A stretch of 14,963 nt of DNA from a virus, in UHGV virus genome UHGV-0220714; one strand, given 5' to 3'. Positions 6,385-9,007 of this stretch are shown in pieces (within the stretch, counting starts at the first letter, position 1; every line of letters begins with the position of its first letter). The notes under the pieces were generated by a model, which ran no database searches, had not been told where the DNA came from, and saw only the letters and a list, made by a program, of their open reading frames with translations. Made by a program: the position numbers and the translations under genes.

Positions 6385-6822
6385 TTATTTATTTGAGAAT
6401 TTTAGGAGTTGGAAAAGTATGATGCTTATATGCATCATTGATGAAGCTGATAGGCCGATCGATAAGGATGGCAACAAAGCAATTGGTTGCTTGCTTGTGG
6501 CCATTAAAAATAACCCCATAAAAAAAACAATGCCAAGCTCCGCAAAGGTCAGTGCATACAGAATAATGACAGATGTCATATATCCGTATGCCTTTACTTT
6601 TTGCATGTTTTTTCCTCTGATGCCTATGACAAACGTCAACGCGGCAATGAGTATTGCGATAGTGGTCCCTGCATATGAAGATATAGCTGCTCCCAGCGCG
6701 TCTCTGTGCTCGGTGAACGAAATTGCTGAGGTAAGGCTACGGAAAATGCAGTAAACGACAATAGTGAAAAGTATTGGTAAAGCGAATAGCAATACGCCGG
6801 GAACGATTTTGTGCTCTCTCAT
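6385..6822 (-). CDS. rexB: RexB-like inner-membrane protein, 145 aa, ~4 TM segments
   Basis: ORF track; four hydrophobic stretches; size and position (between repressor and PL, same strand as cI) match lambda RexB; remembered lambda RexB shares HRD.LGA..SSYAGT.IAILIAALTF. GGGAGG SD 4 nt upstream. Confidence 0.65.
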   Translation of the reverse strand: MREHKIVPGVLLFALPILFTIVVYCIFRSLTSAISFTEHRDALGAAISSYAGTTIAILIAALTFVIGIRGKNMQKVKAYGYMTSVIILYALTFAELGIVFFMGLFLMATSKQPIALLPSLSIGLSASSMMHISIILFQLLKFSNK

Positions 6823-6852
6823 ACGCCCTCCCTTACCCTTAGGTATTCACTC

Positions 6853-7683
6853 TTACTCGTCTTCACAAAAATCTTTATAACTTTTCATTATAACATTTTT
6901 CATTCTTATGTAGCAAATTTCCATTTCCTCTGCAATTTCTTCATTTGTCGATTTGTAAATGTTGGCACTGATGTGCCCCTTGCTTGAAAGGTAGTAGTCA
7001 GTTAGCAAATCAGCTGCGTACTCCTTCGCTTTAAGATGTATGTCACTATGAGAATCATCGGCATTACGAATCAGCTCCTTGGACATGTTGCTGATATTTC
7101 TCATTCTTTTTGGTTTTATTGTTATTTCCACACCTTCAAGAAGCTCTTCTTCGATGGTTTCGATCCCGGCAGCTCTCAGCAAAGGAGACAAAAGCTTGGA
7201 TCCAGACTCAACTCTTAAGGTTGTTCTACCGATGAACTCCATGTCGAGAGCATCATCCCTAGTTACGTCTCTCATCAGAGGTTCTAAACATAGCTTGAAT
7301 GGTTTTGTTATGTTCAATTTATTAGATAAGTAAATTTCAAGCTCACGAACTCTTGGCCCGTGCTGAGTGCAGGCATAACCAATGACGCCATCTTTGATCA
7401 ACAGGAATGATGGAAACGCTAGCGTTTCGTCACTGCCTAATACGTTTTTGATTTCATCGACTGAGAGCGTGGTTTTATTGACCCTTTTAACCAAGTCTGA
7501 GTCATATGTTTTTGTTATTAAATAACATTCTCTGCTAATGTGATGAGCAAATATAAAGTAATCATCAATCTCGAAGGCATTGTTTTTTGCTTTGATTACC
7601 TGTTCGGATAAGCCTGACACCAAATCAATAGGAAAACGTTCCTTACCGTTTTGTTGATAGGAGGCGTAAAAATTAAGTTTCAT
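6853..7683 (-). CDS. rexA: RexA-like protein, 276 aa
   Basis: ORF track; size and position match lambda RexA (279 aa); shared motifs recalled: FPSFL, EPLMR, FIGRTT, IKPK, YLS.KGH, EIAEEM. Confidence 0.65.
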   Translation of the reverse strand: MKLNFYASYQQNGKERFPIDLVSGLSEQVIKAKNNAFEIDDYFIFAHHISRECYLITKTYDSDLVKRVNKTTLSVDEIKNVLGSDETLAFPSFLLIKDGVIGYACTQHGPRVRELEIYLSNKLNITKPFKLCLEPLMRDVTRDDALDMEFIGRTTLRVESGSKLLSPLLRAAGIETIEEELLEGVEITIKPKRMRNISNMSKELIRNADDSHSDIHLKAKEYAADLLTDYYLSSKGHISANIYKSTNEEIAEEMEICYIRMKNVIMKSYKDFCEDE

Positions 7684-7814
7684 ATATCAATCCGTTATAT
7701 ATGGCGTAAGTCATTATATCGTTAAAGTGCATAAAATTTCTTTTTGCATTGAATGCAATGAATGTCGGCTTTAAACCTGCTGGTCACTCTACGCCCGGCG
7801 TACTTTTCCATCCA

Positions 7815-7833
7815 TCACCCAAACGTCTCTTCA
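7815..7833. repeat. 19-bp direct repeat copy 1 (tcacccaaacgtctcttca), 1 nt downstream of stop of gene 7835..8176
   Basis: Exact match to 8186-8204, read directly from sequence. Confidence 0.9.
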
Positions 7834-7834
7834 C

Positions 7835-8176
7835 TCATCCGAAGAAGCAGCAATCCGGGTCAGCACACACAAGCTCAAGCGCATCAGTCAGCGAAAGCTC
7901 AGTACTGTACTGATGCCATTTCATATCCTTCCGCATCCAATAGATTTTCCATCTATCCAGAGAACGTATGTACTTGATTCTTGCTGATGGCAGGATGTTT
8001 GTTTCACCAGGATTGCCCTGCCACACGGGGCGCTGTTCACCGATATCTATCGTTTGGTCATTGATGCTATAAACAATATCCAGTTCATTGCGGATATGTT
8101 CAGGCGGCCTTATGCTTTCAATGAATTGGTGAACTTCTTTTTTGACCGCTTGATATTCAAGGTCAGTGAACGCCAT
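7835..8176 (-). CDS. Hypothetical 113-aa protein inserted between cI and rexA-like (possibly DUF3024-like)
   Basis: ORF track; ATG 8176-8174 with GGAGGA ~5 nt upstream; aromatic-rich core (RWKIYWMRKDMKWHQY) and C-terminal CADPDCC; flanked by 19-bp direct repeats. Confidence 0.7.
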   Translation of the reverse strand: MAFTDLEYQAVKKEVHQFIESIRPPEHIRNELDIVYSINDQTIDIGEQRPVWQGNPGETNILPSARIKYIRSLDRWKIYWMRKDMKWHQYSTELSLTDALELVCADPDCCFFG

Positions 8177-8185
8177 CTATCCTCC

Positions 8186-8204
8186 TCACCCAAACGTCTC
8201 TTCA
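8186..8204. repeat. 19-bp direct repeat copy 2 (tcacccaaacgtctcttca), 10 nt upstream of start of gene 7835..8176
   Basis: Exact match to 7815-7833, read directly from sequence. Confidence 0.9.
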
Positions 8205-8236
8205 GGCCACTGGTTACCAGCTATGTGACGATGAAG

Positions 8237-8944
8237 TCACGAATTTTTCAGCCACTCCCTTGCCTCGATGTCATCCAGATGACGAGATTGCTTCAGAATA
8301 CCAGCCACATACTCCACCTTTGCTACTTGATGATAAGGCAACGTTATAGGCCTGTGGTCCTGGTTAATGCTTGTAAATTGGTATTCTCCATCTCTGTCAT
8401 AGCCAAGAACCTTAATCATGTTGTGTCCTTCAACGGTTCTGACAAACACCTCATCACCCGGGAATACTTTGGTGTTAGGCTCAATGAGTACATATTCTCC
8501 TGATTTTATTCTGGGCCACATGCTGTCTCCTTTCACACGAAGACCAAAGGCATCTGGATCATCGCTATAAATCTTGAGCCACCCATCGCGCTCTTCGGTC
8601 ATCTCGATGGCACCATCAACACCAAGAATTGCCTCACCAACCACGCGCACTAACCCTTTTTTTAATTTGCCAACAAATGAAAGAGTATCTTCATCATTCG
8701 CTCCATTTAACGAAGTGCCGTGCTGAAGCCAAACAACATCAACGTTTAGAAATTTCGCAAGCGCATTCATTTTTTCCTGACGCGGTAAAGACTCAGCATT
8801 AAACCATTTGCTAACGCCTTTGGACGAAAGAGAAAGGGCACGGGCTATGGCCATCCCCCTACCATGTTCATCAAGACCAGCTTCTTTACAGGCTTGCGCT
8901 AGCCGCTGGGCGAATTCTTTGCGCACTTTTTCATTCTGAACCAT
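8237..8944 (-). CDS. cI: CI-type prophage repressor (N-terminal HTH, C-terminal S24/LexA-like peptidase), 235 aa
   Basis: ORF track; GDSMWP serine motif and downstream K in C-terminal domain; divergent from cro across an operator region; no SD before ATG (possibly leaderless). Confidence 0.85.
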   Translation of the reverse strand: MVQNEKVRKEFAQRLAQACKEAGLDEHGRGMAIARALSLSSKGVSKWFNAESLPRQEKMNALAKFLNVDVVWLQHGTSLNGANDEDTLSFVGKLKKGLVRVVGEAILGVDGAIEMTEERDGWLKIYSDDPDAFGLRVKGDSMWPRIKSGEYVLIEPNTKVFPGDEVFVRTVEGHNMIKVLGYDRDGEYQFTSINQDHRPITLPYHQVAKVEYVAGILKQSRHLDDIEAREWLKNS

Positions 8945-8963: not shown

Positions 8964-9007
8964 TTGCAAAAACTTTCAGTTCAATCATAATGCGTACTGA
9001 AAGTACG
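8964..9007 (+). promoter_or_regulatory. PR promoter (-35 TTGCAA 8964-8969, -10 CATAAT 8986-8991) with overlapping dyad operator (OR)
   Basis: 16-bp spacer; inverted repeat ACTTTCAGT (8972-8980) / ACTGAAAGT (8996-9004) and palindrome CGTACTGAAAGTACG (8993-9007) overlap the promoter, upstream of cro. Confidence 0.5.

Follow-up and report, generated by a model that had tools for sequence, protein, structure and literature searches.

A diverged allele of the lambda rexA-rexB module, probably a functional exclusion system, behind a Stx-phage-type repressor in UHGV-0220714

No phage-exclusion system has been known for longer than RexAB. In lambda RexA, roles in binding DNA and in changing conformation have been ascribed to residues D215 and R219/K221, the hinge G140-K143, and the swivel loop 239-244 (PMC11077077). 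The protein also binds CI, and it has a stabilising effect on the lytic state (bioRxiv 10.1101/2021.04.19.439022; PMC11077077). The promoter PLIT is located in the distal part of lambda rexA, and roles have been described for both PLIT and the terminator tIMM (bioRxiv 10.1101/2021.04.19.439022). Beyond lambda, prophage-encoded two-gene systems that pair a DNA-binding RexA-like protein with a membrane RexB-like effector, often beside the repressor, are the RexAB-type system of Pseudomonas putida prophage P1 (PP_5643/5644; PMC12894663) and the Rex-like pairs of the actinobacteriophages Sbash, CarolAnn, and Butters (cited in PMC11077077). Here, we analysed a window of 14,963 nt (UHGV virus genome UHGV-0220714), in which positions 6385-7683 hold a gene pair of this general make-up (Table 1). 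Unlike the P. putida and actinobacteriophage pairs, which are much more distant in sequence, this one is a close enterobacterial relative of lambda's. With a probability of roughly 0.88, we regard it as a diverged but functional version of the rexA-rexB module by which lambda achieves exclusion (abortive infection). Its carrier is a lambda-like prophage with a Stx-phage-type repressor, and the exclusion phenotype would follow by analogy with lambda and P. putida.

Table 1. Features in and around the rexA-rexB pair of UHGV-0220714 (positions in the 14,963-nt window).
Feature	Position	Strand	Evidence or remark
N gene, left of rexB	5611-5946		
PL-like promoter TTGATA-17-CATTAT, left of rexB	6174->6146	-	Promoter motif
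tIMM-type intrinsic terminator, hairpin CCCGGCC-TCAGC-GCCGGG then TTTTCTTTGCC	6352-6383	-	Terminator scan, lambda identity
rexB homologue, 145 aa	6385-6822	-	Pfam, PADLOC, lambda identity, hydropathy
rexA homologue, 276 aa	6853-7683	-	Pfam, PADLOC, 8TWQ match, lambda identity
PLIT-like motif TTGCTA-N18-TATAAT, TG before -10	6887-6916	-	Inside rexA 3' end; promoter scan 10/12
Cassette's own cI-rexA spacer, 131 bp, positional counterpart of lambda 112-bp spacer	7684-7814	-	Travels with rexAB
TATAAT hexamer, candidate -10 of the earlier note	plus 7713-7718	-	Present
Perfect palindrome TTGCATTgAATGCAA	7744-7758	.	Present
Remnant of lambda-type cI 3' end (...EETFG-stop), right junction of rexAB cassette	7815-7833	-	19-bp exact direct repeat with 8186-8204
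DUF3024 gene, 113 aa, between cI and rexA	7835-8176	-	Pfam, PADLOC
Second cI-tail remnant copy, just downstream of real cI stop, upstream of DUF3024 gene	8186-8204	-	Direct repeat
cI-type repressor, 235 aa, HTH + S24 peptidase	8237-8944	-	Pfam Peptidase_S24 and HTH_3

An earlier note, made from the letters of the window, had placed a Rex-like pair between the repressor and PL on the repressor strand, and the layout bears this out. Both open reading frames are where it had put them, sharing one strand with the S24/HTH repressor, and both genes are far above chance level. The order is cI, DUF3024, rexA, rexB, terminator, PL, and N, with the PL-like promoter and N both to the left of the pair, and a gap of 30 bp separates rexA from rexB. 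The gene that was said to be inserted between cI and rexA is there as well, and encodes a DUF3024 protein (Pfam, 1.7e-31) that also matches the candidate defence family PDC-S43 (PADLOC, 2.2e-41). Since the terminator scan found no minus-strand terminator in 7684-8236, rexAB would be co-transcribed with cI.

For RexA, the identity is carried by profile and pairwise searches. The protein matches Pfam RexA (PF15969) with an E-value of 9e-46 (156.8 bits; cut-off, 25), the PADLOC RexA profile with 1.6e-116, and the lambda RexA structure 8TWQ with 2.9e-63 over residues 1-270. In BLASTP it shares 41% identity with lambda RexA over the full length and with hardly any gaps, and its size is close as well (276 vs 279 aa). 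The invariant family motifs IGRTT and IKPKR are retained, the residues aligned with lambda D215, R219, and K221 are D, K, and K, and the swivel loop is partly retained. At the hinge, the sequence reads D-V-T-R here vs G-T-T-K in lambda; the residue at the lambda G140 position is Asp in this protein and in every other aligned non-lambda homologue. An identical RexA is already named 'protein rexA' in NCBI ('MULTISPECIES: protein rexA [Enterobacteriaceae]').

Its partner matches Pfam RexB (PF15968) with an E-value of 8.3e-39 (133.7 bits; cut-off, 27) and the PADLOC RexB profile with 3.1e-54, and is 46% identical to lambda RexB (145 vs 144 aa) over the full length, again with hardly any gaps (BLASTP). 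The four-pass topology that the note had likened to that of lambda is predicted likewise from Kyte-Doolittle hydropathy, which places four hydrophobic segments at about 6-27, 44-68, 82-108, and 116-140 in the same pattern as in lambda RexB. Conserved charged residues sit at the segment borders, E95 lies inside segment 3, and the invariant residues R28, R40, E95, H131, and Q138 are all retained. An identical protein in NCBI carries the name 'biopolymer transporter ExbB', which, if taken at its word, would make the 145-aa protein an ExbB-type transporter subunit and the pair something other than a Rex system. We find this scarcely credible given the two RexB profile matches and the full-length identity to lambda RexB; Pfam returns RexB alone, with no MotA/ExbB family at E <= 0.01, and no NCBIfam model matches the protein, as is also the case for RexA, the DUF3024 protein, and the two open reading frames to the left. 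The ExbB label is a mislabel, and RexB is the correct name. On sequence grounds, then, the two proteins are genuine homologues of RexA and RexB.

Purifying selection on the two genes is strong (dN/dS 0.05-0.09 at a dS of 0.18-0.30), the ratio being about 0.05 for rexA and 0.05-0.09 for rexB. A pseudogene or decaying remnant was rejected on these ratios and on the open reading frames, which are intact in all relatives, including a locus (L015) where no rexB had been called, yet an intact rexB is present.

The likeness to lambda extends from full-length homology, sizes, gene order, strand, and the cI-PL position to the control signals. The terminator just past rexB is identical to lambda tIMM at 34 of 34 bases, and the minus-strand terminator scan gives its hairpin eight pairs, six of them G-C, with the stems CCCGGC at 6364-6369 and GCCGGG at 6376-6381. 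The note had described a bidirectional hairpin 4 nt past rexB; a simple terminator rule is indeed passed on both strands, but the distance is 3 nt from the stop codon (6385-6387), not 4. The note had also overlooked the PLIT-like motif inside rexA. This lies 64 nt upstream of the rexB ATG, and lambda has its counterpart, TTGCTA-N18-TATACT with a TG, at the homologous place. Exact published coordinates of PLIT were not found in the literature searched, and the equivalence refers to this homologous place in rexA. The motif is retained in four other loci (L001, L006, L004, and L025) and in alleles down to 62% RexA identity. Because its hexamers fall in codons of the conserved peptide CY(I/A)RMK..I(M/L), however, this conservation may be at the protein level only.

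There are differences from lambda as well. The repressor here is unrelated (23% identity to lambda cI), and its region instead shares 97-98% DNA identity with Stx-phage repressor regions. A DUF3024/PDC-S43 gene stands between cI and rexA, the spacer before rexA can be aligned with that of lambda only over the ~15 nt next to the ATG, and hinge G140 is replaced by Asp. Stx phages also carry the cI-DUF3024 pair, there flanked on the left by different cargo. In Stx-type lambdoid phages, this position between repressor/DUF3024 and PL is taken by NYN/PIN-domain genes or by the stk kinase (933W-like phages), with the same cI-tail remnant and a tIMM-type terminator; in one Stx phage, the same junctions bound an NYN-domain cargo, which the same tIMM-type element closes. 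The proteins themselves are unrelated to RexA and RexB, and the shared slot therefore reflects slot exchange, not homology of function.

The junctions of the cassette can be followed in the sequence. Read on the reverse complement, 8189-8212 gives QWPEETFG, the lambda cI C-terminus, while the bases of 7815-7833 form the true cI end in eight related loci (L001, L006, and L014-L019). The recurring junction sequences are the cI tail GAAGAGACGTTTGG(G/A)TGA and the terminator CCCGGCC-N5-GCCGGGTTTTCTTTGCC. In prophages of Escherichia coli, Escherichia albertii, and Shigella (L001, L005-L020), RexA is 97-100% identical and comes with the same spacer and terminator. Two of these (L013 and L020) have the whole cI-DUF3024-rexA-rexB arrangement in common with UHGV-0220714; in most relatives the copy directly follows cI, lacks DUF3024, and stands behind other repressor types. 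A scan of one genome per species returned a single relative, Izhakiella australiensis (89%), and exact-protein look-ups yielded more. Judged from these comparisons, the stretch from tIMM to the cI-tail remnant (~6348-7833) is mobile as a unit, recombining at a pair of conserved junction sequences, and the slot that rexAB fills between the cI tail and tIMM is one for exchangeable cargo.

Such mobility bears on the job for which the pair is kept. In principle, the main target of selection might be the way in which the prophage itself passes from lysogeny to lysis, rather than exclusion of other phages; RexA would then bind repressor and DNA, and RexB would have a modulating part. The reported binding of CI by lambda RexA speaks for this, as does the nearly constant position of the module directly after a repressor gene. 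Nevertheless, we consider it quite improbable as the main role. One and the same rex allele follows at least five repressor types, lambda cI included, whose mutual identity is only 20-25%, and a repressor-specific interaction is unlikely to be the conserved function of near-identical rexA alleles serving such different repressors. In addition, rexAB homologues also stand far from any repressor, after dinI or, on the opposite strand, among tail genes, and the P. putida homologue works in defence (PMC12894663). Exclusion thus continues to be our preferred reading.

With regard to expression, the note had presented the 151-bp spacer between rexA and the DUF3024 gene (7684-7834) as a departure from lambda. 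This does not hold, as lambda itself has a 112-bp cI-rexA spacer, and the 151 bp consist of a 19-bp lambda-type cI-tail remnant plus, at a length similar to that in lambda, the cassette's own 131-bp spacer. The latter accompanies rexAB behind at least five different repressors and immediately follows cI in relatives, and consequently belongs to the cassette rather than being a product of the DUF3024 insertion. Its two halves evolve differently. Between alleles, the 70 nt nearest rexA (7684-7753) carry two differences, against 16.8% at four-fold sites (binomial P = 3e-4), whereas divergence in the distal half is near neutral, at about 10 differences per 50 nt (MAFFT). The distal part contains a 1-nt indel between alleles, and an ungapped comparison over-counts differences there, the proximal count being unaffected.

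Also as the note had reported, this spacer contains a minus-strand TATAAT and a perfect 15-bp palindrome. Its claim that they give the pair a promoter of its own is not established. Under that proposal, 7684-7834 would be a separate regulated promoter, with a -10 at 7718-7713, a start near 7706, and the palindrome as an operator ~45 nt upstream, making rexAB partly independent of cI. In its favour stands the conservation of the 70 nt beside a freely diverging distal spacer. Moreover, homologues outside immunity regions (those after dinI or among tail genes) must have their own promoters, and the DUF3024 insertion adds distance from the repressor promoter. Against these, the best -35 is AAGAAA (3/6), there is no TG extension, and the site is unlisted in the promoter scan. 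In none of the other alleles did the region upstream of rexA yield a promoter with at least 9/12 matches. Within the conserved block there are just two substitutions, and they strike exactly the two features, changing TATAAT to TATGAT in the sister allele and one palindrome arm from AATGCAA to AACGCAA in the 97% allele. The palindrome is further broken in L001, both features are missing in Izhakiella and lambda, and the palindrome is perfect in 8 of the 28 loci fetched, all with identical RexA; among the enterobacterial relatives, the perfect palindrome and the TATAAT are confined to the identical-RexA sub-lineage.

Chance levels also differ little from what is seen. The TATAAT is not beyond chance, with one appearing in 25% of shuffled spacers (four in the window vs 5.5 expected). 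The palindrome is marginal: 3.6% of shuffled spacers have a perfect one whose arms reach 7 nt or more and whose loop does not exceed 3 nt (eight in the window vs 4.2 +/- 2.2 expected). Furthermore, the palindrome is unlike the prophage's own operator-like repeats. On balance, a separate regulated promoter in the spacer seems unlikely to us, and read-through from the repressor promoter is the route that we prefer. The two are compatible with each other. We also observed that simple read-through does not account for how strongly the 70 nt preceding rexA are conserved.

Several other roles for the spacer were tried and set aside. For the palindrome, a presumptive candidate was the CytR operator. 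The CytR operator consensus has inverted TGCAA-N2-3-TTGCA / AATGCAAC..GTTGCATT half-sites with flanking CRP sites (half-site consensus: PMC3454398). The half-sites here, TTGCATT-c-AATGCAA, face the other way from those of the published consensus (PMC3454398), a search of 7684-7834 for CRP-like sites allowing up to three mismatches found none, and the palindrome decays in sister alleles. A role as terminator was dismissed, as no T-run follows the palindrome on either strand. Likewise, a 19-codon upstream open reading frame (ATGCAC...TAA, overlapping the rexA start) is not supported as a coupling leader, with all three allele differences non-synonymous and no equivalent in Izhakiella or lambda. 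The fold energy of the spacer/5' UTR RNA was no better than that of shuffles (z = +0.58), and Rfam gave no match anywhere in the window.

Taking these observations together with what is known for lambda and P. putida, the module can be pictured as follows. In the lysogen, leftward transcription of cI, the DUF3024 gene, and rexAB would start at the repressor maintenance promoter, the presumed main operon promoter, and stop at tIMM just past rexB. Additional transcripts of rexB alone probably arise from the second promoter motif, which lies in the 3' end of rexA and corresponds to lambda PLIT. By analogy with lambda and P. putida, RexA would serve as a soluble, dimeric sensor that binds DNA and switches on RexB in response to an infecting phage, and RexB, as a four-pass inner-membrane protein, would damage or depolarise the membrane, leading to growth arrest and aborted infection. 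As in lambda, RexA may also bias the lysis-lysogeny switch. For exclusion, membrane depolarisation, and RexA-RexB interaction alike, we infer from the lambda proteins (41-46% identity) and from P. putida RexAB (PMC12894663). More speculatively, and with rather poor odds in our estimation, the conserved 7684-7753 might hold a weak activator-dependent promoter or a palindrome-centred binding site through which rexAB is expressed apart from the repressor; together with DUF3024/PDC-S43, two defence genes would then be stacked in the immunity operon, within a slot whose cargo is swapped through recombination at the cI-tail and tIMM junctions.

The kind of system is already known, with this allele labelled rexA in public databases and found by standard defence-finding profiles, and hence the finding has little significance beyond correct annotation. 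That annotation matters mostly for the partner protein, which is widely mislabelled as 'biopolymer transporter ExbB' and needs the name RexB. As an allele diverged to 41-46% identity with control signals identical to those of lambda, the pair would also be a handy natural variant in studies of how structure relates to function in RexA and RexB. The cI-tail remnant and tIMM act as fixed junctions round exchangeable cargo (rexAB, NYN/PIN genes, stk), and cargo exchange at these junctions explains how both the rexAB cassette and the DUF3024 candidate defence gene arrived here. The occurrence of one rex allele behind repressors that are unrelated to one another argues for a conserved job that is tied to no particular repressor.

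Homologs of the minus-strand ORF pair were sought by pairwise and profile alignment, which confirmed the RexA and RexB kinship proposed in the earlier note. Pfam RexA matches the 276-aa protein at 9e-46 and Pfam RexB the 145-aa protein at 8.3e-39, both far over the curated cut-offs, and the PADLOC defence models gave 1.6e-116 and 3.1e-54, respectively. BLASTP alignments with the lambda proteins (J02459) are nearly gapless, with 41% identity for RexA (1e-73) and 46% for RexB (6e-48), and over residues 1-270 the match to the sequence of the solved lambda RexA structure (8TWQ) reaches 2.9e-63. In an alignment of nine RexA homologs, 28-89% identical to the window protein, the invariant IGRTT and IKPKR motifs are retained, and D, K, and K stand at the positions of lambda D215, R219, and K221, residues that have been mutated and studied (PMC11077077). 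At the lambda hinge glycine (G140), however, the window RexA has an aspartate, as do all other non-lambda homologs aligned. RexB retains the invariant R28, R40, E95, H131, and Q138 together with the GTxIAILIAAxTF block, and its four hydrophobic segments, as in lambda RexB, agree with the membrane topology first suggested. Moreover, both genes are intact and in operon position, and dN/dS values of 0.05-0.09 (dS 0.18-0.30, against two alleles ~94% identical in DNA) point to strong purifying selection on each. Judged from its sequence, the pair is a real RexAB module of known kind, correctly recognized at the outset.

The module is already named in databases, and standard defence-system profiles would detect RexAB. 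In NCBI, a RexA sequence identical to that of the window comes from Shigella flexneri, E. coli, and others under the name "MULTISPECIES: protein rexA [Enterobacteriaceae]", and a 97% variant is entered as "protein rexA [Escherichia albertii]". An identical RexB is filed in NCBI/RefSeq under "biopolymer transporter ExbB" or as hypothetical; Pfam, PADLOC, and NCBIfam profile searches gave no support for the ExbB name, which looks like a propagated mis-annotation of RexB.

Features of the immunity region around the rexAB pair (plus-strand positions)
Feature	Position	Strand	Basis or location
N-family gene	5611-5946		left of ORF pair
PL-like promoter, TTGATA-17-CATTAT	6174->6146	-	left of pair; inverted repeat flanking
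Hairpin terminator stems	6364-6369 / 6376-6381		left of pair, after rexB
rexB homolog, 145 aa	6385-6822	-	ORF call
rexA homolog, 276 aa	6853-7683	-	ORF call
TATAAT, proposed -10	7713-7718	-	sequence
Perfect palindrome TTGCATTgAATGCAA	7744-7758		spacer; sequence
DUF3024 gene, 113 aa	7835-8176	-	right of pair, same strand
Repressor, 235 aa, HTH and S24 peptidase domains	8237-8944	-	right of pair, same strand

On the PL side, operator-like repeats at 6151-6187, GTACCAATAGTTC (6187->6175) and GAACTATTGGTTC (6163->6151) in minus-strand reading, bracket the PL-like -35 and overlap the PL-like -10, and related elements, ACTTTCAGTTC (8972-8982) and GTACTGAAAGTAC (8994-9006), occur in the cI-cro intergenic region (8972-9006). 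Between PL and the terminator, a strong plus-strand promoter-like site (TTGTGA-18-TATAAT, 10/12, 6195-6224) is aimed at rexB in antisense, and the hairpin, read on the plus strand, could end its transcript; the flank that holds it is also present in Stx phages. Also between the terminator and the PL region, the stretch at 6255-6347 aligns poorly with lambda, an E. coli FDAARGOS_943 locus (L001), and an E. coli O121 Stx prophage (L002), and is overlapped by a 50-aa minus-strand TTG ORF at 6205-6357.

Downstream of rexB, the sequence CCCGGCCTCAGCGCCGGGTTTTCTTTGCCTCACG equals that of lambda over 34 bases, despite 41-46% protein identity. The hairpin therein agrees with a simple terminator rule on both strands; it had been described as a bidirectional terminator 4 nt past rexB, and its distance from the stop codon is 3 nt. 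The sequence taken as the module's own terminator is lambda's tIMM, which in lambda ends the PRM and PLIT transcripts alike (bioRxiv 10.1101/2021.04.19.439022). The region's best minus-strand promoter-scan match, TTGCTA-N18-TATAAT (6916-6887) with TG preceding its -10, is located within the rexA 3' end, and the -10 ends 64 nt before the rexB ATG; at the homologous place, lambda rexA has TTGCTA-N18-TATACT with TG. The motif is kept in L001, a related locus (L006), Izhakiella, and L025, whose allele is 62% identical; three alleles at greater distance have a weaker form of it. Because its hexamers overlap codons of a conserved peptide, we call it a PLIT-like motif and a putative promoter only. 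Since a scan found no minus-strand terminator between the cI stop and rexA, the simplest expectation is that transcripts from the repressor promoter would read through DUF3024 into rexA.

A promoter of the module's own had been proposed in the 151-bp spacer (7684-7834), with the palindrome as a sign of partly independent regulation; the spacer's length, TATAAT, and palindrome are exactly as first described. The TATAAT is within chance, being present in 25% of shuffled spacers (4 in the window vs 5.5 expected), and the palindrome is a marginal case, as 3.6% of the shuffles have one like it (8 matches in the window vs 4.2 +/- 2.2 expected). Two further perfect palindromes, GAAACGCTAGCGTTTC (7413-7428) and TGTTATTAAATAACA (7513-7527), occur within the rexA coding sequence. 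The promoter candidate pairs a perfect -10 with a -35 of only 3/6, is without TG, and was not listed by the promoter scan. The 97% sister allele has TATGAT for the -10 and AACGCAA in place of the palindrome arm AATGCAA; three changes and an indel disrupt the palindrome in L001, and Izhakiella (89% RexA) and lambda are without both elements, only ~15-20 nt before the ATG being kept. The perfect palindrome is limited to eight loci encoding identical RexA. The specific spacer motifs are not conserved, the spacer promoter and operator are unproven, and the PLIT-like motif is the better-supported candidate for a second promoter. The 70 nt nearest rexA (7684-7753) differ from L006 at 2/70 sites, compared with 26/155 four-fold sites (binomial P = 3e-4), and the distal half diverges at ~10 per 50 nt; something in the proximal part is thus constrained within this allele lineage. 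Rather unlikely explanations are a promoter that is weak or depends on a factor, and a translation-initiation region that extends this far. Neither an evident RNA structure (fold z = +0.58) nor a known RNA family was found in the spacer, and a CytR/CRP site and a conserved small ORF were rejected.

The spacer had also, wrongly, been considered a departure from lambda, which itself has a 112-bp cI-rexA gap. In 17 related loci, rexA is preceded by the same sequence, starting ...CCTGAAGAGACGTTTGG(G/A)TGA, which is the true cI end (…QWPEETFG-stop) where the repressor has a lambda-type C-terminal domain, and a non-coding remnant where it is of another type. In the window, this 19-bp cI-tail element forms an exact direct repeat (7815-7833 and 8186-8204) flanking the DUF3024 gene, and with the related loci it resolves the 151 bp into a 19-bp cI-tail remnant and the cassette's own 131-bp spacer. 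The exact repeat of a lambda-type cI 3' end (…EETFG-stop) also suggests that DUF3024 was inserted by recombination at this linker. Among the PADLOC models, the DUF3024 gene hits PDC-S43, a candidate defence family, with 2.2e-41.

The module itself looks like a mobile cassette and appears in varied settings. Two complete E. coli genomes have a segment with 93.7% identity to positions 6348-7833, and in them it comes immediately after a repressor that shares 99% identity with lambda cI. The L001 prophage (5038-7181), whose repressor also shows 99% identity to lambda cI, carries this diverged rex allele rather than lambda's own (41-46% to lambda RexA/RexB). Nearly identical rexA alleles stand behind at least five repressor types, mutually 20-25% identical, and more distant ones (54-70%) follow yet other repressors in Yersinia and E. 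coli. Outside immunity regions, one rexAB pair comes after dinI, close to an integrase. In Pantoea-type prophages, a second pair sits amid tail genes and on the opposite strand, where it must have a promoter of its own; such homologs (59-71% RexA identity) were seen in L021 (2141-3804) and L027/L028 (2501-3806). Stx phages have a repressor and DUF3024 gene 97-98% identical to those of the window, but their slot has cargo with an NYN/PIN domain in place of rexAB (933W-like phages have stk there), between the same tIMM-type hairpin on the left and the same GAAGAGACGTTTGGGTGA element on the right. This arrangement was seen in L002 at 4180-5210, and the window has the two bounding elements at 6352-6383 and 7815-7833. 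By these comparisons, the cargo in the slot is exchangeable and the junctions are fixed; being shared around different cargo, the junctions look like recombination linkers, recombination itself being our inference.

By analogy with the lambda literature and a P. putida RexAB study, RexB would damage or depolarize the membrane, halting growth and aborting infection, and RexA may also bias the lysogeny-lysis switch. That one rex allele is found promiscuously with unrelated repressors speaks against a conserved function that depends on contact with a specific repressor.
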